Part shown: positions 2,313-62,390 of the stretch, piece by piece | Layout: every line of letters starts with the position of its first letter | How positions within the stretch are numbered: the first letter of the stretch is position 1 | Assembly (NCBI RefSeq): GCF_030013595.1 | Contig: NZ_CP122771.1 | DNA length: 64,000 bases | DNA from: Escherichia coli | GTDB lineage: Bacteria; Pseudomonadota; Gammaproteobacteria; Enterobacterales; Enterobacteriaceae | Strand: one strand, 5' to 3' | Position numbers and translations under genes: made by a program | Notes under the pieces: model-generated | Seen by the model: only the letters and a program-made list of their open reading frames with translations | What the model was told of the DNA's origin: nothing | Database searches by the model: none

Positions 2313-2824
2313 AACAGATTTCTTTATTTATTCCTCTGCTGGGGACCTTATTACTTTCCGGCTGTGCCGGAACCAGTACGGAATTTGAGTGTAACGCCAC
2401 CACATCCGATACCTGTATGACGATGGAGCAGGCCAATGAGAAGGCCAAAAAACTGGAGCAGTCCTCAGAAGCAAAGCCGGTTGCGGTATCACTGCCGCGC
2501 CTGGCTGAAGGGAACTTCCGGACAATGCCGGTGCAGACCGTTACCGCGACCACTCCGTCCGGCAGCAGACCTGCGGTGACAGCACATCCGGAGCAGAAAC
2601 TGCTGGCACCACGCCCGCTGTTTACCGCTGCCCGGGAAGTGAAAACGGTTGTTCCGGTCAGTTCAGTTACGCCGGTAACACCTCCTCGTCCGCTAAGAAC
2701 GGGTGAGCAGACGGCAGCATTATGGATAGCGCCTTATATTGATAACCAGGATGTTTATCATCAGCCATCCAGCGTGTTTTTTGTTATTAAACCGTCTGCG
2801 TGGGGAAAACCACGTATTAATTAA
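2309..2824 (+). CDS. traV: TraV, outer-membrane lipoprotein of T4SS core
   Basis: 171 aa; lipoprotein signal with lipobox LLLSGCAG; synteny. Confidence 0.9.
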   Translation: MKQISLFIPLLGTLLLSGCAGTSTEFECNATTSDTCMTMEQANEKAKKLEQSSEAKPVAVSLPRLAEGNFRTMPVQTVTATTPSGSRPAVTAHPEQKLLAPRPLFTAAREVKTVVPVSSVTPVTPPRPLRTGEQTAALWIAPYIDNQDVYHQPSSVFFVIKPSAWGKPRIN

Positions 2825-2958
2825 CTGGCCCTGAAGTTGTATATCAGCCGGCAATGCCGGCGGGCTTTCTGTATTCAAAATCTGCCTGTAAAACGAGTGC
2901 CCTGTGCGTGAAAAGGGATGGGCGGTAGCGTGTCAGAACATGTCGGGAGGAATATTCC

Positions 2959-3180
2959 GTGAGTGATGAAGCCGATGAAGCATATTCAGTGACAGAACAA
3001 CTGACCATGACAGGAATAAACCGGATACGCCAGAAAATAAATGCTCATGGTATTCCTGTTTATCTCTGTGAAGCATGCGGAAATCCTATTCCGGAAGCCC
3101 GGCGGAAAATATTTCCCGGTGTGATGTTATGTGTTGAATGTCAGGCGTATCAGGAAAGACAGAGAAAACATTATGCATAA
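2959..3180 (+). CDS. traR: TraR, DksA/TraR-family zinc-finger protein
   Basis: 73 aa, GTG start; C4 motif CEACGN...CVEC; position between traV and traC. Confidence 0.9.
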   Translation: MSDEADEAYSVTEQLTMTGINRIRQKINAHGIPVYLCEACGNPIPEARRKIFPGVMLCVECQAYQERQRKHYA

Positions 3181-35330: not shown

Positions 35331-35878
35331 GCACCTCCCACCGCAAGCGGCGGGCCCCGACCAGAAACTATTTAGTTACAACACTCAAATACAACCACCG
35401 GAAGAACCCCGGTCCCGCGCAGAACTGAAACCACAAAGCCCCTCCTCATAACTGAAAAGCGAGGCCGCCCCCGCCCAAAGGGCGGGAACAACATCGCTTT
35501 TAATTATGAATGTTGTAACTACATTATCATCGCTGCCAGTTCTCTGGCTGGAAGTCCTCAGTACACGCTCGTAAGCGGCCCTCACGGCCCGCTAACGCGG
35601 AGATACGCCCCGACTTCGGGTAAACCCTTGTCGGGACCACTCCGACCGCGCACAGAAGCTCTCTCATGGCTGAAAGCGGGTATGGTCTGGCAGGGCCGGG
35701 GATGGGTAAGGTGAAATCTATCAATCAGTACCGGCTTACGCCGGGCTTCGGCGGTTTTACTCCTGTATCATATGAAACAACAGAGTGCCGCCTTCCATGC
35801 CGCTGATGCGGCATATCCTGGTGACGATATCTGAATCGTTATATACTGTGTATATACGTAGTAATGACGAGGTGATAA

Positions 35879-39978: not shown

Positions 39979-40014
39979 GAACTGAACTCTGTTAAAGGAC
40001 GCTGTTGCGTCCTT

Positions 40015-40378
40015 TTTTCTTTTCCGACAAAGGATGTCGCCGGGCTCCTCTTTTTACTGCGCCGGCTGACGCGGCGCGGCAGGAACGCTGCCTGTGGTCA
40101 GTATCCCGCGTCCGGCCGGGCACGGGACGGGCGCTTTTACCGCTCCCGGCTGGCGTCGGTGGCAGTGTACGCCAGCCCGTCGCCCTTTTCTGATGAACGC
40201 CCTTCAAGCCGCTTTCGCGGCATATCCTCGCCGTCAAACAGACGACGGCTGCGGTATTCCACGGTCGGCCTGACCCGTTATCGGACGCGGTGAACAGCCC
40301 ACAGGCCGCGGGGAACGGGCGCCACAGGGGCGCCCTCCCGGTGCTCTCTGCTGAAGCAGAAGTGAGAGGAGAATTCCC
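40015..40378 (+). repeat. Leading-region direct repeat family B, copy 1 (about 360 bp, includes RBS of downstream gene)
   Basis: Near-identical to 41338-41687; begins after stbB terminator hairpin; ends at ATG of 40379 ORF. Confidence 0.85.
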
Positions 40379-41305
40379 ATGCCAAACTGGTGCTCAAATC
40401 GTATGCATTTTTCTGGTGAACCGGCACAGATTGCTGAGATTAAACGACTGGCCAGCGGTGCAGTCACACCGTTTTATCGCCGCGCCACAAATGAAGGTAT
40501 TCAGCTGTTTCTGGCCGGAAGTGCCGGACTTCTGCAGACCACTGAAGATGTGCAGTTTGAACCGTGCCCCGGAGTGACGGCTGCCGGACGTGGTGTTGTA
40601 TCGCCGGAGAATATCGCGTTCACCTGCTGGCTGACACACCTGCAGAACGGTGTGCTACTGGATGAACAAAACTGCCTGATGCTGCATGAACTCTGGCTGC
40701 AGAGTGGTACTGGCCAGCGTCGCTGGGAAGGATTACCGGATGAGGTCAGGGAAACCATCACCGTGCATTTCACCGCCAAAAGAGGTGACTGGTGTGGCTT
40801 CTGGAGTAACGAGGATGTATCGGTGTGGTGGAACCGTCTGTGTGACAATGTACTGCCGGAAAAAACCATGCCGTTTGACCTGCTGACGGTTCTGCCCACC
40901 CGCCTGGATGTTGAAGTGAATGGCTTTAACGGTGGTGTTCTGAATGGTGTTCCTTCTGCGTATCACTGGTATACGGAACAGTATGGCGTGAAGTGGCCTG
41001 TGGGGTATGAGGTGAATATCAGCCGTCAGGGAGAAAACTTCATTCAGGTGGATTTCGACACGCCGTGGTGTCAGCCGGAAAGCAACGTTGTTGCAGAATT
41101 AAGCCGCCGTTTCGGCTGCACGCTGGAGCACTGGTACGCCGAACAGGGCTGCAATTTCTGTGGCTGGCAGTTGTATGAGCGCGGAGAGCTCGTTGATGTG
41201 CTGTGGGGGGAACTGGAATGGTCTTCCCCGACAGATGACGATGAGCTGCCGGAAGTCACCGGACCTGCGTGGATAGTCGACAAGGTGGCGCATTATGGCG
41301 GATGA
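40379..41305 (+). CDS. Conserved leading-region hypothetical protein
   Basis: 308-aa ORF immediately downstream of repeat B1. Confidence 0.6.
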   Translation: MPNWCSNRMHFSGEPAQIAEIKRLASGAVTPFYRRATNEGIQLFLAGSAGLLQTTEDVQFEPCPGVTAAGRGVVSPENIAFTCWLTHLQNGVLLDEQNCLMLHELWLQSGTGQRRWEGLPDEVRETITVHFTAKRGDWCGFWSNEDVSVWWNRLCDNVLPEKTMPFDLLTVLPTRLDVEVNGFNGGVLNGVPSAYHWYTEQYGVKWPVGYEVNISRQGENFIQVDFDTPWCQPESNVVAELSRRFGCTLEHWYAEQGCNFCGWQLYERGELVDVLWGELEWSSPTDDDELPEVTGPAWIVDKVAHYGG

Positions 41306-41337
41306 AGTATGACGGAGACGGGCGGGCAACCGCCCGT

Positions 41338-41687
41338 TTCTTTTCCGGTAAAGGATGTCGCCGTGCTCCTCTTTTTACTGCGCCGGCTGACGCGGCGCGG
41401 CATAAACGCTGCCTGTGGTCAGTGTCCCGCGTCCGGCGGGCACGGGACGGACGCTTTTACCGCTCCCGGCTGGCGTCAGTGACAGTGTACGCCAGCCCGT
41501 CGCCCTTTCTGATGAACGCCCTTCAAGCCGCTTTCGCGGCATAGCCTTGCCGTCAAACAGACGACGGCTGCGGTATTCCACGGTCGGCCTGACCCGTTAC
41601 CGGACGCGGTGAACAGCCCACAGGCCGCGGGGAACGGGCACCACAGGGGTGCCCTCCCGGTGCCCTCTGTAAGAGAAGGAGGCTTTT
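41338..41687 (+). repeat. Leading-region direct repeat family B, copy 2
   Basis: Near-identical to 40015-40378; ends at ATG of methyltransferase gene. Confidence 0.85.
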
Positions 41688-42371
41688 ATGTCCCGTTTTA
41701 TCCTGGGTGACTGCGTGCGAGTTATGGCCACGTTTCCGGACAATGCTGTCGATTTCATCCTCACCGACCCGCCGTATCTCGTCGGTTTCCGTGACCGTTC
41801 CGGGCGCACCATTGCCGGTGACGTTAACGATGACTGGCTGCAACCTGCCAGTAATGAGATGTACCGCGTACTCAAAAAAGACGCGTTAATGGTGAGCTTC
41901 TATGGCTGGAACCGCGTCGATCGCTTTATGGCCGCCTGGAAAAATGCGGGATTCAGCGTGGTTGGCCACCTGGTGTTTACCAAAACCTACACATCGAAGG
42001 CCGCATATGTGGGCTATCGCCACGAATGCGCCTACATCCTGGCAAAAGGACGTCCGGCGCTGCCTCAGAAGCCATTGCCCGACGTGCTGGGCTGGAAATA
42101 TTCAGGCAACCGCCATCACCCGACGGAAAAGCCTGTTACCAGCCTGCAACCGCTCATTGAGAGCTTCACACATCCGAACGCGATTGTGCTGGACCCGTTT
42201 GCAGGCAGCGGCTCAACATGCGTCGCCGCCCTCCAGTCCGGACGCCGGTATATCGGTATCGAGCTGCTTGAACAGTATCACCGTGCCGGACAGCAACGAC
42301 TGGCCGCCGTGCAACGGGCCATGCAGCAGGGGGCCGCGAATGATAACTGGTTTGAACCGGAGGCGGCGTAA
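41688..42371 (+). CDS. Orphan DNA methyltransferase (beta-class N6A/N4C)
   Basis: 227 aa; DPPY near N-terminus and FAGSGST near C-terminus; no adjacent restriction endonuclease. Confidence 0.85.
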   Translation: MSRFILGDCVRVMATFPDNAVDFILTDPPYLVGFRDRSGRTIAGDVNDDWLQPASNEMYRVLKKDALMVSFYGWNRVDRFMAAWKNAGFSVVGHLVFTKTYTSKAAYVGYRHECAYILAKGRPALPQKPLPDVLGWKYSGNRHHPTEKPVTSLQPLIESFTHPNAIVLDPFAGSGSTCVAALQSGRRYIGIELLEQYHRAGQQRLAAVQRAMQQGAANDNWFEPEAA

Positions 42372-43869: not shown

Positions 43870-44281
43870 TGATGGCGGGGAAAATCCCCGCCTTTTTCCT
43901 GCCGGTCCCCGGACAGAGCACAAAGGAAGTCGCCGCCGGCTCCGCTTTACCCGGCCATGCAGGCATGGCCTTGTGGGTTTTCAGTTATGTGGCCACAGTG
44001 TCGTGTGCGGGCTGTGCCGTGCCTCCATCTTAGCCGGGCTGGCGTTGATGCAAGGGTACGCTTCGCCGCTGCGGTCACCCGGTCCCTCCTTCCCGTCTGC
44101 CGTGATTTTCCGGTCGTTCACCCGCTCAGATTTCGCGGTCTCACCCTCCAACTCCCGCCAGCCGTGTGCGTCAGGCTGCGGCTTCCCTTGCGCCCTGTGC
44201 ATCCCCGCCTTATCGCCCGGCTTTTATGGAGGCACGGCACCGCCCGGTGTCGCGGAATATGTGAACAACGGAGGAAATCCC

Positions 44282-45592: not shown

Positions 45593-46165
45593 GCGCACCT
45601 TCGGCTCCCGGCTGCCTGGCGGCATCCGGTCGTCAGGCCCGACTCCGACAGGCAGCTGCTGGCGCACCCGCCAGTCTCCGCCGAACCCGCTGGCGCGGTT
45701 TCGGGCTGTCGCTACGGTCCGATGCGTGAAAACCCCGGGCTTGCAGCGACCGTTCCGGTCGCGCCACCCTTGTCGCGCCGTGGCCTGCGCTCCCGGCATC
45801 CCGGCAAAAGGCCGCCGGGATGTAAGGCGCAACGCCGTTTCGCGCACGCGCTCTCCGTCGTTGCGGCGGGTCCCTGCTCATTGCCTGCCGGGTGCCACAC
45901 ACCCGTATGAGTCCCTGTCGCCGGGGGCTGATACAGCCACAACCTGCCGCACTGACTGTCCAGGGTAAATGAACAGCCCACAAAATTTTTTACCCAAAAC
46001 CCGGTAAAAAATTTTGCGTTCTGCCCGGGACAGGTGCGTCAGGCCGTGGCAGTGATGCCCCTTGCGGCGAAGGTTCTCAAACGGGTGAAGTTCATACCAC
46101 AGGGAATACAGCAGCAGGTTCCCGCGAAACGTCAAAACCGCGGCTCCCGAAACTCAACGGGTGAT
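45593..46165 (+). repeat. Frpo-like leading-region repeat, copy 1 (hairpin 45979-46018)
   Basis: About 570 bp GC-rich unit also at 49012-49465 and 59340-59925; 14-bp perfect stem caaaattttttacc/ggtaaaaaattttg. Confidence 0.8.
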
Positions 46166-48085: not shown

Positions 48086-48649
48086 ATGCACAGTCAGTTA
48101 AGAGAACGTATCCGGCTGATGCGCGCAAGGCTGGATAACGCCGCGCCGGTTGCTGAAATCCGGGCTGAATCTCAGCTTTTTGTGACTCCTGCCCCGGTCT
48201 GTGATCGCCTGGTGACGCTGGCGGAGATCAGCAACCGTGATCACATTCTGGAACCCTCTGCCGGCACCGGGGCCATACTGCGGGCGATTCGGGATACCGC
48301 GCCGGGGGCCATGTGTGATGCGGTGGAAATCAACAGCGGGCTGGTCCGGTATCTGCGGGAAAATTTTAACGGTGTCAGGGTTCAGTGTGGCGACTTCATG
48401 GAATGGCAGCCGGTGCAGTATTACAGCCGGGTTATCATGAATCCGCCGTTCAGCCACGGGCAGGATATCCGGCATATCCTGCGGGCCTTTTCCCTGTTGC
48501 GTCCGGGTGGCGTGCTGGTCGCCGTCTGTCTCAACGGACCACGCCAGCAGGAGAAGCTGTTGCCGTTTTCTGACGTCCGCGAGGAGCTGCCGCGCGGCAC
48601 GTTTGCTTATACCCGTGTTCCGACGATGATTATTCGTCTGCGGGCCTGA
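48086..48649 (+). CDS. Small orphan N6-adenine DNA methyltransferase-like protein
   Basis: 187 aa; SAM-binding EPSAGTG followed by NPPF catalytic motif. Confidence 0.75.
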   Translation: MHSQLRERIRLMRARLDNAAPVAEIRAESQLFVTPAPVCDRLVTLAEISNRDHILEPSAGTGAILRAIRDTAPGAMCDAVEINSGLVRYLRENFNGVRVQCGDFMEWQPVQYYSRVIMNPPFSHGQDIRHILRAFSLLRPGGVLVAVCLNGPRQQEKLLPFSDVREELPRGTFAYTRVPTMIIRLRA

Positions 48650-48830
48650 AGACGCCGGGCAGGCGGGAGGATAAATGCCTGTCTGTCCGCGCCGGGAAAA
48701 GACCGCGCGCCGGTGGCGCTGAAAGGGGCCGCGCTGACGCGCCGCCCCTTTCATTACGCGGACGTTCTGACGGGGGCTTCTGTCTTTTCAGACCTGTCAT
48801 TTGCCTGTTACTGATGATGTTGTTGTTCCT

Positions 48831-49011: not shown

Positions 49012-49465
49012 GCCAAACCCCCTGGCTTGCAGCGACCGTTCCGGTCGCGCCGCCTCTGTCGCGCCGTGACCTGCGCTCCCGGCATCCCGGCAAAAGGCCG
49101 CCGGGATGTGAGGGGCAACGCCGTTTCGCGCACGCGCTCTTCGTCGTTGCGGCGGGTGCCTGCCCGTTGTTGTATCCGGTGCCCTGCACCCGTTTAAGCC
49201 CCTGTCGCCGGGGGCAAAGACAGCCACAACCGTCTCCGCCAGTCCAGGGGTGAAATGCACATCCCACAAAAGTTTTTGCCCAAAAGCCGGCAAAAACTTT
49301 TGTGGTCTGCCCCCGGACAGTCGTTTCCGGCCGTGGCAGTGATGCCCCTTGCGGCGAAGGTTCTCAAACGGGTGATGGTTAATACCGGAGGGAACAAACG
49401 GCAGGTCCCCGCAAAACGTCAAAACCGCGGCTCCCGAAACTCAACGGGTGATGGGGGCTGAAAAC
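49012..49465 (+). repeat. Frpo-like leading-region repeat, copy 2 (hairpin 49264-49305), immediately upstream of ssb
   Basis: Perfect 17-bp stem ccacaaaagtttttgcc/ggcaaaaacttttgtgg; unit ends at ssb RBS. Confidence 0.8.
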
Positions 49466-50369: not shown

Positions 50370-52328
50370 ATGTCAGTTACAGAGTCTAAGACAAAAACGG
50401 AGCGTAAATCCAGCCGTAAACCTGCAAAAACGCAGGAAACAGTCCTGTCTGCCCTGCTGGCGCAGACGGAGGAAGTGAGCGTGCCGCTGGCCTCACTGAT
50501 TAAATCACCGCTGAATGTGCGCACGGTGCCGTATTCTGCGGAGTCCGTCAGCGAACTGGCGGACTCCATTAAAGGTGTCGGCCTGTTACAGAATCTGGTT
50601 GTTCATGCCCTGCCAGGTGACCGTTACGGTGTCGCCGCAGGCGGTCGCCGACTGGCAGCACTCAACATGCTGGCAGAGCGCAACATCCTTCCGGCTGACT
50701 GGCCTGTACGCGTGAAGGTCATTCCGCAGGAGCTGGCGACTGCCGCATCGATGACCGAGAACGGTCAGCGTCGGGATATGCACCCTGCCGAACAGATTGC
50801 CGGATTCCGCGCAATGGCGCAGGAAGGCAAAACACCTGCACAAATCGGTGATTTGCTGGGCTATTCACCCCGCCACGTTCAGCGAATGCTGAAACTGGCT
50901 GACCTTGCGCCTGTCATCCTCGATGCGCTGGCAGAAGACCGCATCACCACCGAACACTGTCAGGCGCTGGCGCTGGAGAACGACACCGCGCGTCAGGTGC
51001 AGGTGTTTGAAGCCGCCTGTCAGTCGGGATGGGGCGGTAAACCGGAAGTACAGACCATTCGTCGTCTGGTGACCGAAAGTGAAGTGGCGGTGGCGGGGAA
51101 CAGTAAATTCCGCTTCGTGGGGGCTGATGCCTTCTCGCCAGACGAACTGCGCACCGATTTGTTCAGCGACGACGAAGGTGGCTATGTGGACTGCGTGGCG
51201 CTCGATGCCGCCCTGCTGGAAAAACTCCAGGCTGTCGCAGAGTTCCTTCGGGAAGCCGAAGGCTGGGAATGGTGCGCCGGACGCATGGAGCCTGTCGGTG
51301 AGTGCCGTGAGGATGCCGGAACATACCGCTGTCTGCCGGAGCCGGAAGCGGTGCTGACGGAGGCGGAAGAAGAACGTCTGAACGAACTGATGACGCGTTA
51401 CGACGCGCCGGAAAACCAGTGTGAGGAATCTGACCTGCTGGAAGCAGAAATGAAGCTGATGCGCTGCATGGCGAAGGTCAGGGCGTGGACGCCGGAGATG
51501 CGTGCCGGAGGTGGAGTGGTGGTGTCCTGGCGTTATGGCAACGTGTGTGTCCAGCGTGGTGTGCAGTTGCGCAGTGAGGATGACGTGGCTGACGACGCTG
51601 ACCGTACGGAACAGGTGCAGGAGAAAGCGTCAGTGGAGGAAATCAGTCTGCCACTGCTGACGAAAATGTCTTCCGAACGCACGCTGGCAGTCCAGGCAGC
51701 ACTGATGCAGCAACCGGACAAATCTCTGGCACTGCTGGCATGGACGCTCTGCCTGAATGTGTTTGGCAGCGGAGCGTACAGTAAACCAGCACAAATCAGC
51801 CTGGAATGTAAACATTATTCGCTGACCAGCGATGCGCCATCGGGGAAGGAAGGTGCCGCATTCATGGCGCTGATGGCAGAAAAAGCCCGTCTTGCTGCCC
51901 TGTTACCGGAGGGATGGTCACGGGACATGACGACATTCCTGTCACTCAGTCAGGAGGTGCTGTTATCCCTGCTCAGTTTCTGCACCGCATGCAGCCTTAA
52001 CGGTGTCCAGACCCGTGAGTGTGGTCACACGTCACGCAGTCCGCTTGACACGCTGGAAACCGCCATCGGCTTTCACATGCGAGACTGGTGGCAGCCGACA
52101 AAAGCAAACTTCTTCGGACACCTGAAAAAGCCGCAGATTATCGCAGCCCTGAATGATGCCGGACTGTCCGGTGCCGCACGGGATGCAGAGAAGATGAAGA
52201 AAGGTGATGCGGCTGAACATGCAGAGCACCATATGAAAGACAACCGCTGGGTGCCTGGCTGGATGTGTGCACCACGTCCACAGACGGATACCACTGAACG
52301 CACCGATAACCTGGCTGATGCCGCCTGA
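50370..52328 (+). CDS. ParB-like nuclease domain protein
   Basis: 652 aa; N-terminal ParB/Srx-like box (VHALPGDRYGVAAGGRRLAAL). Confidence 0.8.
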   Translation: MSVTESKTKTERKSSRKPAKTQETVLSALLAQTEEVSVPLASLIKSPLNVRTVPYSAESVSELADSIKGVGLLQNLVVHALPGDRYGVAAGGRRLAALNMLAERNILPADWPVRVKVIPQELATAASMTENGQRRDMHPAEQIAGFRAMAQEGKTPAQIGDLLGYSPRHVQRMLKLADLAPVILDALAEDRITTEHCQALALENDTARQVQVFEAACQSGWGGKPEVQTIRRLVTESEVAVAGNSKFRFVGADAFSPDELRTDLFSDDEGGYVDCVALDAALLEKLQAVAEFLREAEGWEWCAGRMEPVGECREDAGTYRCLPEPEAVLTEAEEERLNELMTRYDAPENQCEESDLLEAEMKLMRCMAKVRAWTPEMRAGGGVVVSWRYGNVCVQRGVQLRSEDDVADDADRTEQVQEKASVEEISLPLLTKMSSERTLAVQAALMQQPDKSLALLAWTLCLNVFGSGAYSKPAQISLECKHYSLTSDAPSGKEGAAFMALMAEKARLAALLPEGWSRDMTTFLSLSQEVLLSLLSFCTACSLNGVQTRECGHTSRSPLDTLETAIGFHMRDWWQPTKANFFGHLKKPQIIAALNDAGLSGAARDAEKMKKGDAAEHAEHHMKDNRWVPGWMCAPRPQTDTTERTDNLADAA

Positions 52329-53566: not shown

Positions 53567-55138
53567 TTACTGAGAGGTCAGATCAACTTTCCAGGGCAAC
53601 AGATCGCGTACCCGGTTTGCCGGCCAATCCTGGATATGCTCAATGACGTAACGCAGCCATTTTTCTGGTTCCACATTGTTCAGACGGCATGTGCCGATCA
53701 GCGAGTACAACACCGCCGCATGTTCGCCACCGCTGTCGGAACCCGCGAAGAGCCAGTTTTTCCGGCCTACGGCCACTCCCCGTAAGGCGTTCTCTGCGAT
53801 GTTGTTGTCGATTTCCACCCAGCCATTACTGCAGTACACGTTCAGGGCCTCCCACTGTTTCAGCAGGTATGCGAACGCTTTTGCCGTATCCGAGTGACGC
53901 GACAGTGTTTTCATCTGTTCCTGTATCCAGTCATACAGTGACTGCATCAGTGGAGCCGCTCTGGCTTTTCTTGCTGCCAGACGCTGTTCTGCTGAACATC
54001 CCCGGACTTCTGCCTCGATGACATACAGTTCACCGATACGCTGCAGGGCTTCCGTGGTGATGTCGGTTGGCACTCTTGCATGCACATCGTGGATTTTTCT
54101 CCGGGCATGGGCCATACACGCGGCTTCCGTTATTCTGCCGGATTCGTATAACGCCCGGTAACCACCGTAAGCATCTGCCTGAAGCACACCGCTGTAACCG
54201 GCCAGGTGATTCTGTGGATGGATACCTTTCCGGTCCGGGCTGTACGCGAACCAGACCGCCGGGGGCATCTGTGAACCGGCGTTACGGTCATCACGGACAT
54301 AGACCCACAGCCGGGCAGTTCTTGTTTTACCACTGCCCGGCTCCTGGACCGGAACGGGGATATCATCCGCATGGACTTTACCGGGCATCAGCACATACTG
54401 GCGCAGCACGTCATACAGCGGCTCCAGCAGTTCAGCAACGGCACCGGTCCAGCGCCCCAGCGTGGCGCGGCTCAGTTCCACGCCCTGACGAAGGTATATT
54501 TCTGACTGGCGGTATAACGGCAGATGGTCTGCATACTTCCCGGTGACGATATGAGCCAGAAGCCCCGCTCCGGCATAACTGCGTGCAATGGGTTTTGAAG
54601 GTACTGGTGCCTGCACGATATGGTCGCACCGGCAACAGGCCAGTTTCGGACGTTGTGTTTCGATAACCTTAAAAGCGCTGCTGATAAGCTCCAGTTGCTC
54701 TGACACATCACACCCCAGAGGACTGAGGTCACCACCACAGGCCGGGCAGCATTCCTCTTCCGGCCGGATGACCCGGGTTTCACGGGGAAGTGAGGCCGGT
54801 AACGGCTTACGGGCTGAAGACTGGCGCAGGGCGGATGGCAGTACCGGGTCATATTGCTCATCCAGCGTTTCCGCCATTTCTTCCTGAAGTGCGCTGATTC
54901 GCTCCTGGGCTTCCTGTATCTGCCGTTCGGTTTTAGCGCGAAGTTTTTCTGAGCTTTTACCGAACTGCATGCGCTGCAGTTTCGCAACCAGCGCCTTCAG
55001 CCGGTTGATTTCGGAAGCATAAGCCGCCACCCGCTGTGAGAGCAGGCGGTTGTATTTCGCCATCTGGCGGATGGTGTCCTGTTGCGTCTGCAACAGTGCC
55101 CGCAGGCGGGCATTCTCATGAGCAAGTGAGGTGTCCAT
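53567..55138 (-). CDS. IS66-family transposase (OrfC)
   Basis: 523 aa with N-terminal coiled coil, CxxC...CxxC zinc motif and DDE-type core. Confidence 0.9.
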
Positions 55139-55157
55139 ATCCTCACTTTACAACGGG

Positions 55158-55505
55158 TTATATGCGGATGCCAGCGCGTTCCGTTCGTTTCGGGTGCTTC
55201 CAGTCGATGCCTTCGAGAAGCATGGACAACTGAGCCGGAGTAAGGTGAACCTTTCCATCGCGGGTGACCGGCCAGACGAAGCGGCCCCGCTCCAGGCGTT
55301 TGGTGAAGAGGCACAGTCCGTCACTGTCAGCCCACAGCACTTTTATCTGGTCACCCCGGCGTCCGCGGAAGATGAACAGATGCCCGGAGAACGGGTCATC
55401 CTTCAGGACGTTCTGAACTTTTGAGGCCAGGCCGTTAAAGCCATTTCGCATATCGGTGATACCGGCAACCAGCCAGATACGCGAACCGGCAGGGAGAGAT
55501 ATCAT
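55158..55505 (-). CDS. IS66 OrfB (TnpB-like accessory protein)
   Basis: 115-aa ORF with the conserved IS66 OrfB-like N-terminus. Confidence 0.85.
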   Translation of the reverse strand: MISLPAGSRIWLVAGITDMRNGFNGLASKVQNVLKDDPFSGHLFIFRGRRGDQIKVLWADSDGLCLFTKRLERGRFVWPVTRDGKVHLTPAQLSMLLEGIDWKHPKRTERAGIRI

Positions 55506-59339: not shown

Positions 59340-59925
59340 GCGCACCTTCGGCTCCCGGCTGCCTGGCGGCATCCGGTCGTCAGGCCCGACTCCGACAGGC
59401 AGCTGCTGGCGCACCTGCCAGTCTCCGCCGAACCCGCTGGCGCGGTTTCGGGCTGTCGCTACGGTCCGATGCGTGAAAACCCCGGGCTTGCAGCGACCGT
59501 TCCGGTCGCGCCGCCTCTGTCGCGCCGTGGCCTGCGCTCCCGGCATCCCGGCAAAAGGCCGCCGGGATGTAAGGCGCAACGCCGTTTCGCAAACCGCGCT
59601 TCACGTCGTTGCGGCGGGTCCCTGCCCGTTGTTGTGTCCGGTGCCATTCACCTGTTTAAGCCCCTGTCGCCGGGGGCATAGACAGCCACAACCGTCTCCG
59701 CCAGTCCAGGGGTGAAATGCACATCCCGCAAAACTTTTTGCCCAGAAGCAGGCAAAAACTTTTGCGGTCTGCCCCCGGACAGTCGTTTCCGGCCGTGGCA
59801 GTGATGCCCCATGCGGCGAAGGTTCTCAAACAGGTGATGGTGAATACCGGAGGGAACAAAAGGCAGGTCCCCGCAAAACGTCAAAACCGCGGCTCCCGAA
59901 ACTCAACAGATGATGGGGGCTGAAA
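59340..59925 (+). repeat. Frpo-like leading-region repeat, copy 3 (hairpin 59726-59767)
   Basis: Stem ccgcaaaactttttgcc/ggcaaaaacttttgcgg; unit ends at RBS of 59948 ORF. Confidence 0.8.
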
Positions 59926-61214: not shown

Positions 61215-61470
61215 TTATATTATCATTTTTCGGCATTGCTGTGTCGTCTGATATACCTCAATTTCATCGACCGGCTTTCCGGTTGTCTGTAAATATTGTG
61301 CCCGCGAAAAATGGTCTGGCAGGAGGCTGCGCAGTTACCGGGTATATATAAGATGGGTTCCCGCTTCGCGGGGCTTCGGCCAGTCAGTATTGTCACTCAT
61401 ATGATATTTTTGTGTGTGGCCTTCCATGCCGCTTTTGCGGCATAACCGGTATCTGACAATGTCTGTAAGA

Positions 61471-61983
61471 TTAATTGTTCTGCACGCTGTTAATTTCCGG
61501 AAGTGATTTCTTCGTGGCCGGAAGCCGGATACCTTTACTGCTTTTTATCCCGGTATAAATCCGGTAAACCTCTGATGCGTAGGCAAGACGTCTCTGGTTC
61601 TGGCGTTCGGATTTCCTGAATCCTGCATTGTATGCACCAACGGCCTCCCAGGTGACGCCCCATTTTTTAAATGCTATTGCCAGATAATAAGCACCGGTAT
61701 AAATGTTCATGCAGGGATCTGTTGTCAGATGTTCCGGCTTAATTCCATAGCGGGCCAGTTCGTTAAAATGCTGGGAATCTACCTGCATCAGTCCGCTGCC
61801 ATATCCCGTTACCGGATTAATACCGATGGCATTAACCCGGTAACGGGATTCTTTCCATGATATTGCTCTCAGTAAATCAGGATCTATTTTGTAATCCCGG
61901 CCTGCAAGATCAAAGCAATCAGTGGCATGGCAGATCTCATTTATAAACATCAGGCAGATGGCTAACATCCATTTTTTCATTTT
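61471..61983 (-). CDS. Gene X / orf169 lytic transglycosylase
   Basis: 170 aa from [12 protein letters not shown]; signal peptide; adjacent to oriT as in F. Confidence 0.85.
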
Positions 61984-61989
61984 TCCACC

Positions 61990-62390
61990 TCTGGTGACTT
62001 TATCCGTAAATAATTTAACCCACTCCACAAAAAGGCTCAACAGGTTGGTGGTTCTCACCACCAAAAGCACCACACACTACGCAAAAACAAGTTTTTGCTG
62101 ATTTGCCTTTTAAATCATGTAATTAACAAATGCTATTTATATTTAATAATTCTGAATTATTAAATAGAGAGTCGTTGGCGATCCTGTTACGACCCTATAG
62201 CGACCCTTATTAGGATCAGTACTGACAATTTTCATGAAAAACATTGATATATATTAGGGGCGCCACTAGCGCCGGATCGCATTTTTTTATAGGATGATCC
62301 TAGAGGCGCTGCTAGGAGTGTCTTTCTTACTTGTAAACACTATATGCATATTTATAGTGAAAAGTTCATTGCTTAATTATGAAAGGTTTT
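61990..62390. promoter_or_regulatory. oriT (origin of transfer) with nic region about 62060-62080 on the minus strand
   Basis: Reverse complement of 62030-62082 reads GTAGTGTGTGGTGCTTTTGGTGGTGAGAACCACCAACCTGTTGAGCCTTTTTGTGGAGTGGG, near-identical to the F/R100 nic region as remembered. Confidence 0.8.

Follow-up and report, generated by a model that had tools for sequence, protein, structure and literature searches.

Two direct repeats in the leading region of an Escherichia coli IncF plasmid are very probably copies of a class-3 single-stranded DNA promoter

We analyzed a stretch of 64,000 nucleotides of Escherichia coli DNA (contig NZ_CP122771.1 of assembly GCF_030013595.1), referred to below as the window, which contains a direct repeat in two copies, at positions 40016-40350 (copy A) and 41337-41669 (copy B). 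Their pairwise alignment covers 335 positions and shows 94.9% identity, the differences being 15 substitutions and two 1-nt indels, and a repeat of such length and identity cannot have arisen by chance. No third copy was found within the window, either by BLAST with a word size of 7 or with an nhmmer profile. An initial annotation of this DNA had described the repeats as 360 bp long (40015-40378 and 41338-41687), each extending to the ATG of the next gene and including its ribosome-binding site. The repeat is indeed present there but is only about 335 bp long, and the homology between the copies ends at 40350 and 41669, that is, 28 and 18 nt short of the ATGs at 40379 and 41688. Moreover, the Shine-Dalgarno regions, GAGAGGAGAATTCCC before 40379 and AGAAGGAGGCTTTT before 41688, are unrelated to each other. 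Consequently, the ribosome-binding sites lie outside the repeat and the repeats are not fused to the start codons.

Copy A precedes a plus-strand gene for a 308-amino-acid (308-aa) protein of the DUF1281 (YfdA/YccB/YubB) family at 40379-41305, with 94% aa identity to its homologue in plasmid pESBL; DUF1281 corresponds to family 27 of Samuel et al. (2024), a large family that shows enrichment in leading regions. Copy B precedes a plus-strand gene at 41688-42371 for a 227-aa beta-class N6-adenine DNA methyltransferase homologous to M.EcoGIX, which was identified as a beta-class enzyme in the initial annotation and matches NF010253 with 494 bits. The protein contains DPPY at residues 27-30 and FAGSGST at residues 171-177 and is 89% identical in aa sequence to the pESBL protein encoded at 54782-55465. 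Upstream, a terminator-like hairpin with a T-run (39994-40015, plus strand; a 9-bp stem and T tail in the hairpin scan) ends the partition (stbB-like) gene, as identified from the annotation of an Escherichia albertii plasmid, and the start of copy A falls inside this T-run. Similarly, the start of copy B falls inside the T-run of a hairpin that follows the DUF1281 stop codon, ACGGGCGG-GCAA-CCGCCCGT (41318-41345, plus strand). The terminator hairpin that had been noted before each copy is thus supported by the scan for copy A, while the one at copy B is recognizable by eye and is missing from the list of scanned hairpins.

The window is the leading region of an IncF plasmid. The region is 100% identical to the E. 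albertii IncF plasmid NZ_CP024284.1, in which partition genes are followed by the DUF1281 gene, the DNA methylase gene, antirestriction, ssb and parB-like genes, and then by oriT and the tra genes. The oriT nic region is represented by a nic-like sequence, GTAGTGTGTGGTGCTTT, which occupies 62064-62080 of the minus strand and has 2 mismatches when compared with F; from its strand and the gene order we deduce that the minus strand of the window is the transferred (T) strand. The T strand is the template of the plus-strand leading genes, and the repeats are located 20.4-22 kb from the nick. Open reading frames placed like traM and traJ come after the nic-like site, at 62294 and 62972.

Promoters that function on the transferred single strand have been described in related plasmids. 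In the IncI1 plasmid pESBL, Wen et al. (2025, PMC12672017) distinguished three promoter classes among the six operons that are induced zygotically, namely class 1 of the Frpo/ssi type, class 2 located 5' of klcA and ardA, and class 3 located 5' of M.EcoGIX; the assignment is based on induction in transconjugants measured by RNA sequencing and on start sites determined by 5' rapid amplification of cDNA ends. The authors report a start site mapped within the class-3 element, in agreement with the prediction of a single-stranded DNA (ssDNA) promoter, and state that classes 2 and 3 are conserved in F. The F copy has been named ssp3, and when it was swapped in for ssp2, promoter strength was equal (preprint 10.64898/2026.01.09.698686). 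An ssDNA promoter upstream of ecoGIXM had been postulated earlier by Fomenkov (2020) on the argument that the methylase must be expressed from the entering strand.

The plasmids pESBL (NC_018659.1) and F (NC_002483) each contain one copy of the repeat analyzed here, directly 5' of the 227-aa methylase gene. Copy B shares 97.4% identity over 346 nt with pESBL 54429-54774 and 95.7% identity with F 53812-54158, with homology that runs on to 41681, while copy A is 96.7% identical to the F copy and 94.0% identical to the pESBL copy over 335 nt. This homology and the shared site 5' of the methylase gene identify copy B as the orthologue of the published class-3 promoter. Both repeats lie in the leading region directly 5' of a gene templated by the transferred strand, which is the setting that characterizes class 3. 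We conclude that the two repeats are very probably copies of the class-3 ssDNA promoter (ssp3) of IncF/IncI conjugative plasmids, giving both downstream genes transient expression triggered by entry into the recipient. The start site, induction in transconjugants and portability have been demonstrated for the pESBL and F orthologues; in the present analysis we find the homology, the strand, the conserved fold and its covariation. The suggestion in the initial annotation that the repeats act as portable promoter/leader cassettes with shared, possibly early post-transfer regulation is supported by the homology to class 3 and by the exchange of ssp3 for ssp2 in F, except that the active form would be the single-stranded minus (transferred) strand rather than double-stranded DNA or RNA, that the ribosome-binding site lies outside the cassette, and that activity is presumed by analogy for copy A. 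As a separate observation, between this IncF plasmid and the IncI1 plasmid pESBL the element (97.4% nt identity) is more similar than the methylase gene (86.9% nt, 89% aa) and the next open reading frame (79.7% nt).

The short motifs within the element raise the question of a role in replication, that is, whether the repeats are priming signals (single-strand initiation sites) for the complementary strand with expression being secondary. An 8-nt segment, GCGAAAGC, is found on the minus strand at 40211-40218 in copy A and at 41530-41537 in copy B. It is invariant in 21/21 sequences from which the junction core was extracted, and the motif reads so on the T strand only. As a mini-hairpin it melts at 76.5 C as DNA and at 39 C as RNA, and it also occurs in primase-dependent origins (PMC13037366). 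A 29-nt stretch of the element resembles the ssiE hairpin of F, and all enteric copies contain AAGCGG. A conserved hairpin containing AAGCGG is a feature of PriA-type primosome assembly sites. Transcripts of class-1 Frpo are reported to prime DNA synthesis (Masai and Arai 1997, as cited in later work). Nevertheless, AAGCGG is not conserved beyond the enterics, the relatives in Burkholderiales having AAAGCCC instead, which weakens the reading as a PriA primosome site based on this motif and on the similarity to ssiE. Furthermore, ssp3 has been reported as a promoter without roadblock activity, with priming reported for ssp1 only (10.64898/2026.01.09.698686), and the site directly 5' of genes and in the orientation of the genes is conserved. 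We therefore regard a primary priming role as unlikely. It is compatible with promoter function and hence not an exclusive alternative; priming in addition to promoter function is possible but lacks specific support.

In the predicted secondary structures, the T strand of copy A folds as DNA with -101 kcal/mol (z -5.65) and that of copy B with -94.9 kcal/mol (z -4.74), but the plus-strand fold is also strong (-96.8 kcal/mol, z -4.11). Wen et al. use a threshold of -75 kcal/mol for the transferred strand in a 300-nt window; the corresponding T-strand values are -89.3 kcal/mol for copy A and -88.5 kcal/mol for copy B, both beyond this threshold, compared to a mean of -43.4 and a standard deviation of 12.6 over the whole window. 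The 300-nt scan of the T strand over the whole window, a repeat of a published procedure that does not depend on homology, found eight regions at or below -70 kcal/mol, comprising the two repeats, one class-2 copy, three class-1 copies and two others. In order to assess conservation, we aligned 20 homologues of 63-98% identity in T-strand orientation, with an alignment core of 320 columns. The consensus of these 20 copies is a branched stem-loop of 76 pairs, in which 98% of the cells are paired and 14 pairs show compensatory changes. None of 500 shuffled controls reached the observed values, and the pairing collapses once partner columns are slid against each other. Covariation is seen in the long stem P1 and in a small hairpin of 6-7 bp toward the gene-proximal end (helix 1, with 4/6 pairs covarying), which reads GGGCGCC-N5-GGCGCCC in copy A (40317-40335) and GGGCACC-N5-GGTGCCC in copy B (41636-41654), with one compensatory G-C/A-T change relative to copy A.

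In the consensus fold, the T strand reaches -99.2 kcal/mol versus -75.7 kcal/mol for the plus strand (-48.0 versus -29.7 with DNA parameters), and the T strand folds better in 20/20 sequences. The non-Watson-Crick cells include 112 G:T pairs on the T strand while only 9 would wobble on the plus strand, a count that is biased in favor of the T strand by the derivation of the consensus from a T-strand alignment; the independent plus-strand fold, which is also weaker, is free of this bias. By these models the fold is that of the T strand. The initial annotation had recommended predicting the structure of both strands and examining whether the few differences between the copies preserve structure. 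Most of these differences (13/17) fall in unpaired columns, and 3 of the 4 in paired columns keep the pair: one compensatory pair of changes converts G-C to A-T, and one substitution produces a G:T wobble on the T strand. Copy A keeps every conserved feature of the fold, its sole structural loss being an A:C mismatch at the end of one helix.

These data also bear on the possibility that the repeats are structured RNA leaders, i.e., elements of the 5' untranslated region (5' UTR) such as an attenuator, a thermosensor or a stabilizer that follow an ordinary upstream promoter. The strong plus-strand fold would be expected for such leaders, and the small hairpin at the 3' end, which covaries by Watson-Crick pairs only, could act in RNA; it is located downstream of the start predicted below and would therefore lie in the 5' UTR and be present in the mRNA if that prediction is right. 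On the other hand, a terminator-like hairpin stands directly before each copy, the consensus fold and its wobble pairs favor the minus strand by a wide difference, the invariant GCGAAAGC is stable specifically as DNA and occurs on the minus strand only, and the start site of the orthologue was mapped within the element (PMC12672017). No family of Rfam 15 matches the repeats, the best scores being 18-19 bits against gathering thresholds of 45 and 138. We consequently consider RNA leaders very unlikely. One of the sub-threshold matches, to the Erse small RNA (RF02757) at 41453-41647 on the minus strand, with 18.4 bits against a gathering threshold of 138 and E 0.017, is probably due to chance.

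The element is widespread. At 90% identity or higher it occurs in more than 5000 PLSDB plasmids from Escherichia, Klebsiella, Salmonella and Shigella. The junction between copy A and the DUF1281 gene (right junction) is present in 364 PLSDB records, and the left junction with the terminator of the partition gene in 311. The left-junction count is not above the right-junction count, and there is no sign of deletion derivatives formed by recombination between A and B. That the repeats are copies or remnants of a small non-autonomous mobile element (similar to miniature inverted-repeat transposable elements or repetitive extragenic palindromes) is most improbable: the element is multi-copy, intergenic, about 335 bp long and has second copies in differing contexts, but we found neither the identifiable ends that the initial annotation had named as the signature of a mobile element (the long inverted repeat is internal, 70-100 nt from each end, and no inverted repeats occur at the termini) nor a target-site duplication beside either copy, the flanks of which differ, while every copy found lies in a leading region in one orientation directly 5' of a gene, the covariation indicates selection on the fold, and the junction counts fit inherited arrangements rather than scattered insertions. 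Annotation pipelines place open reading frames labeled "hypothetical protein" and even "arginase" inside the element (in public records such as L001 11968-12279, L003 5920-6278 and L005 9394-9705). Single-base indels between close copies rule out a conserved open reading frame in the element, and in view of these indels and the covariation the annotated frames are probably spurious.

We modeled the location of the promoter within the fold. A scan for sigma-70-like promoters of the double-stranded form found none on the plus strand inside either repeat. Two linear candidates on the T strand were rejected, namely TACACT as the -10 element (the best linear match, which lies in a hairpin loop with no template opposite and at a distance from TTGAAG that varies among 13, 16 and 29-32 nt across relatives) and TTGACG at 40235-40240 as the -35 element (which lies within a covarying hairpin stem and is not conserved). 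In the consensus fold, however, the 3' arm of P1 carries a mismatch bubble of the form N-A-N-A-C-T; copy A has GATACT and copy B GACACT, and the diverged copies have CACACT. The A at position 2 faces C or G and the T at position 6 faces T in 20/20 sequences. These positions correspond to the two bases of the -10 element that are flipped out by sigma-70. On the minus strand of copy A, the 3' arm of P1 (40086-40114), with the candidate -10 element GATACT at 40105-40100, is paired with the 5' or template arm at 40282-40310; in copy B, the 3' arm is at 41407-41436, with GACACT at 41426-41421, and the template arm is at 41600-41629. Transcription is predicted to start in the template arms near 40303 and 41622, and the 5' UTRs would be about 76 and 66 nt long.

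A possible -35 element emerges at the three-way junction of the fold. There, one part of an invariant GGTCAR on the 5' arm is paired with the TTGA of an invariant CTTGAAG and another part with an invariant CC on the 3' arm. The proposed composite -35 element of copy A consists of TTGA at 40204-40207 and CC at 40125-40126, opposite GGTCAG at 40270-40275, and that of copy B of TTGA at 41523-41526 and CC at 41445-41446, opposite GGTCAG at 41589-41594 (all on the minus strand). In our model, which contains no linear -35/-10 pair, the sequence TTGACC would form by stacking of two helices, with TTGA and CC meeting across the junction opposite the continuous GGTCAR, and the composite -35 and the -10 element would be separated by a spacer of 18-19 nt in the non-template direction of reading and of 15 nt along the template. 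In 20/20 sequences we find the composite TTGACC, a spacer of 18-19 nt, and mismatches at both A2 and T6.

More distant relatives of the element were sought by scanning species-representative genomes with the methylase protein, which yielded 38 loci. Class-3 copies that have diverged to 63-82% identity with the E. coli type are found in Citrobacter, Erwinia, Edwardsiella, Raoultella, Enterobacter, Entomohabitans and Hafnia, while other enteric plasmids have the methylase without a class-3 element. The copies form three clades: the E. coli IncF/IncI type (A- and B-type, 94-98% identity), the methylase-proximal copies of other enterics, and a separate Citrobacter "upstream" clade, whose members are located 5' of DUF1281 homologues (45% identical to the one in the window) or of an unrelated 155-aa open reading frame. 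The separate Citrobacter clade implies that the element was duplicated at least twice, in agreement with a portable cassette. Methylase homologues of 61-67% identity in Burkholderiales (Achromobacter, Bordetella petrii and Paraburkholderia) are preceded by segments that fold with -81 to -99 kcal/mol; the contigs compared were L032, L033, L034, L037, L039 and L040, with the element at about 2700-3000. These segments share a junction core consisting of GGTCAR, GAC(C)GTGGAATA, TATGCCGCGAAAG and CTTGAAR, and helix 6 at the junction covaries, with GCCG/CGGC in enterics (TCARGCYG/CGGCTTGA) and GGG/CCC in Burkholderiales (TCARGGG/CCCTTGA). Independent minimum-energy folds show the junction of GG:CC and TCAR:TTGA in 5/6 of the Burkholderiales segments, and GATTGT, GACGGT or GACTGT follows 17 nt on in a weak or mismatched zone. 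As judged from their sequences, the segments are putative class-3-like relatives, which we did not find reported in the literature examined.

Taken together, the junction data suggest a general model that we put forward tentatively, as a possibility rather than as the expected outcome. Class-3 promoters may build their -35 element in three dimensions, from TTGA and CC over GGTCAR, 17-19 nt before a -10 element in which A(-11) and T(-7) are unpaired. This architecture, with the invariant GCGAAAGC at the junction, may be conserved from the IncF/IncI plasmids of Enterobacterales to Burkholderiales, always beside an ssDNA methylase, and may have been duplicated independently at least twice, each time recruiting other genes into the program of entry.

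Several considerations weigh against the interpretation of the repeats as ssDNA promoters or against its details. A weight-matrix scan of the T strand found no convincing match to a linear sigma-70 promoter. The modeled -35 and -10 elements and start sites may differ from the published class-3 boxes, which are given in a figure. The composite -35 element exists only if helices 5 and 6 stack, and the junction residues are invariant, so that covariation cannot confirm the stacking; in the enteric copies, a local hairpin GCCGC-GAAA-GCGGC competes with helices 6 and 7. The expression data come from the pESBL and F orthologues, from which the activity of copy A is extrapolated by sequence. Finally, the DUF1281 gene of pESBL has no class-3 element and lies upstream of all six promoters of Wen et al., which means that early expression of this gene is not a general requirement.

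If the repeats are class-3 promoters as we propose, the following sequence of events would take place during conjugation. Starting at the nick near 62072, the minus strand of the window would enter the recipient with its 5' end leading. Each element of about 300 nt on that strand would fold into the branched stem-loop as long as it remains single-stranded, and the fold would present a duplex promoter, its -10 element pre-melted, to the RNA polymerase of the host. Transcription would then read the transferred strand, from copy A into the DUF1281 gene and from copy B into the gene of the ssDNA-specific methylase. Synthesis of the complementary strand would subsequently remove the fold and switch both genes off, and the two genes would thus share one transient, entry-triggered (zygotic) expression.

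The second copy is the feature that distinguishes this plasmid from pESBL and F. A class-3 element 5' of the DUF1281 gene is absent in pESBL, F and typical IncF plasmids, where homology to the DUF1281 leader starts only at position 40362 of the window. An origin of the F copy as a recombinant of A and B was rejected, given that both flanks of the F copy are B-like and that F keeps a frameshifted DUF1281 gene. In F this gene (yfdA) is split by the frameshift, as indicated by two tblastn segments in different frames (L002 2856-3781).

Promoters of this kind were already described in 2025, and with its second copy before an additional gene this plasmid departs only slightly from known biology. 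The novelty is modest and consists of the second copy 5' of the DUF1281 gene, the evidence from covariation and strand specificity, the junction-promoter model, and the Burkholderiales relatives. The set of plasmid genes that a new host cell expresses within the first minutes, before its defenses act, is determined by ssDNA promoters, which therefore bear on the spread of resistance plasmids. The reuse of the class-3 cassette would bring the DUF1281 gene into the early program in a few hundred plasmids, and its position under the second copy makes the DUF1281 protein a candidate establishment or anti-defense factor. The conserved junction and the Burkholderiales relatives, in turn, offer defined sites for mutagenesis aimed at the way in which a folded single strand is read by RNA polymerase.

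The window contains additional ssDNA elements on the minus strand. Three class-1 copies of the Frpo/ssiD type are located at 45823-46155, 49111-49457 and 59570-59919, with 78%, 92% and 96% identity to F ssiD; the copy at 49.1 kb is upstream of ssb and the copy at 59.6 kb is the nearest to oriT. A class-2 (ssp2-type) element at 43919-44253, with 81% identity to Frpo' 4, a candidate that Samuel et al. (2024) list from an insect metagenome, lies upstream of an antirestriction (KlcA/ArdB-like) gene and has a linear TTGCAT-15-TAAGAT on the 3' arm of the T strand. BLAST with reference sequences also found a match to F ssiE at 61288-61476. A segment of copy A at 40186-40214 (TATGCCGCGAAAGCGGCTTGAAGG on the T strand), 29-31 nt long, resembles the F ssiE hairpin (61419-61447) and a segment upstream of the yacA antitoxin gene (35789-35819), with identities of 81-83% and E of about 0.02. 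Two further segments without a match to any known promoter class, 48461-48800 and 50601-51040, have minus-strand folds of -77 and -74 kcal/mol (300-nt windows) and appear to overlap coding sequence, as judged by coordinate offset from the annotation of the E. albertii plasmid.

On the T strand, the end of every one of the three promoter classes is formed by GGAGC, a few bases, and GCGAC, with GGCGACATCCTTTG present in classes 2 and 3. In the repeats this 3'-boundary motif has the form GGAGC-N3-GCGAC, on the minus strand at 40036-40048 in copy A, where the base of the fold includes the pairing of GGAGC with GTTCC, and at 41357-41369 in copy B. The class-2 boundary motif is at 43929-43943, and a similar motif occurs on the minus strand near 45793, 49079 and 59540. 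The pattern GGAGC-N3-10-GCGAC occurs 4 times in the window compared to 0.97 expected, and 3/4 of these occurrences are at promoter boundaries.

Among known systems, the class-3/ssp3 promoters of pESBL and F resemble the repeats most directly, with 94-98% identity, the same site 5' of the 227-aa methylase gene, the same orientation relative to oriT and a fold beyond -75 kcal/mol, and they differ in that this plasmid has a second copy 5' of the DUF1281 gene where pESBL and F have none; the class-3 orthologue is presumed to be read by the host RNA polymerase. The class-1 elements, Frpo/ssiD of F and ssi1-3 of ColIb-P9 (Masai and Arai 1997; Bates 1999; Couturier 2023), are alike in having a transferred-strand hairpin of about 330 nt, -10 mismatches, leading genes that are expressed transiently, and more than one near-identical copy on the same plasmid. 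However, class 1 is described as a simple long stem that carries both the -35 and -10 elements, whereas the repeats have a branched fold without a linear -35/-10 pair. BLAST comparison of the repeats with five reference Frpo/ssi sequences (F ssiD and ColIb-P9 ssi1-3 among them) gave no match, the references matching elsewhere in the window, and the Frpo' and Frpo* candidates of Samuel et al. did not match the repeats either. The class-2/ssp2 elements share the setting and the T-strand 3'-boundary motif GGAGC-N3-5-GCGAC[AT]TCCTTTG, but the hairpin upstream of klcA/ardA is not homologous to the repeats beyond this 29-nt boundary motif; class 2 also differs in its linear TTGCAT-15-TAAGAT and in being a replication roadblock, which ssp3 reportedly is not. 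Finally, the early promoters of phage N4 and the G4-type origins are likewise ssDNA-specific signals with a very stable DNA mini-hairpin, GCGAAGC/GCGAAAGC; in those systems a phage RNA polymerase or a primase reads a short hairpin, while the repeats form a branched fold of 300 nt upstream of genes.

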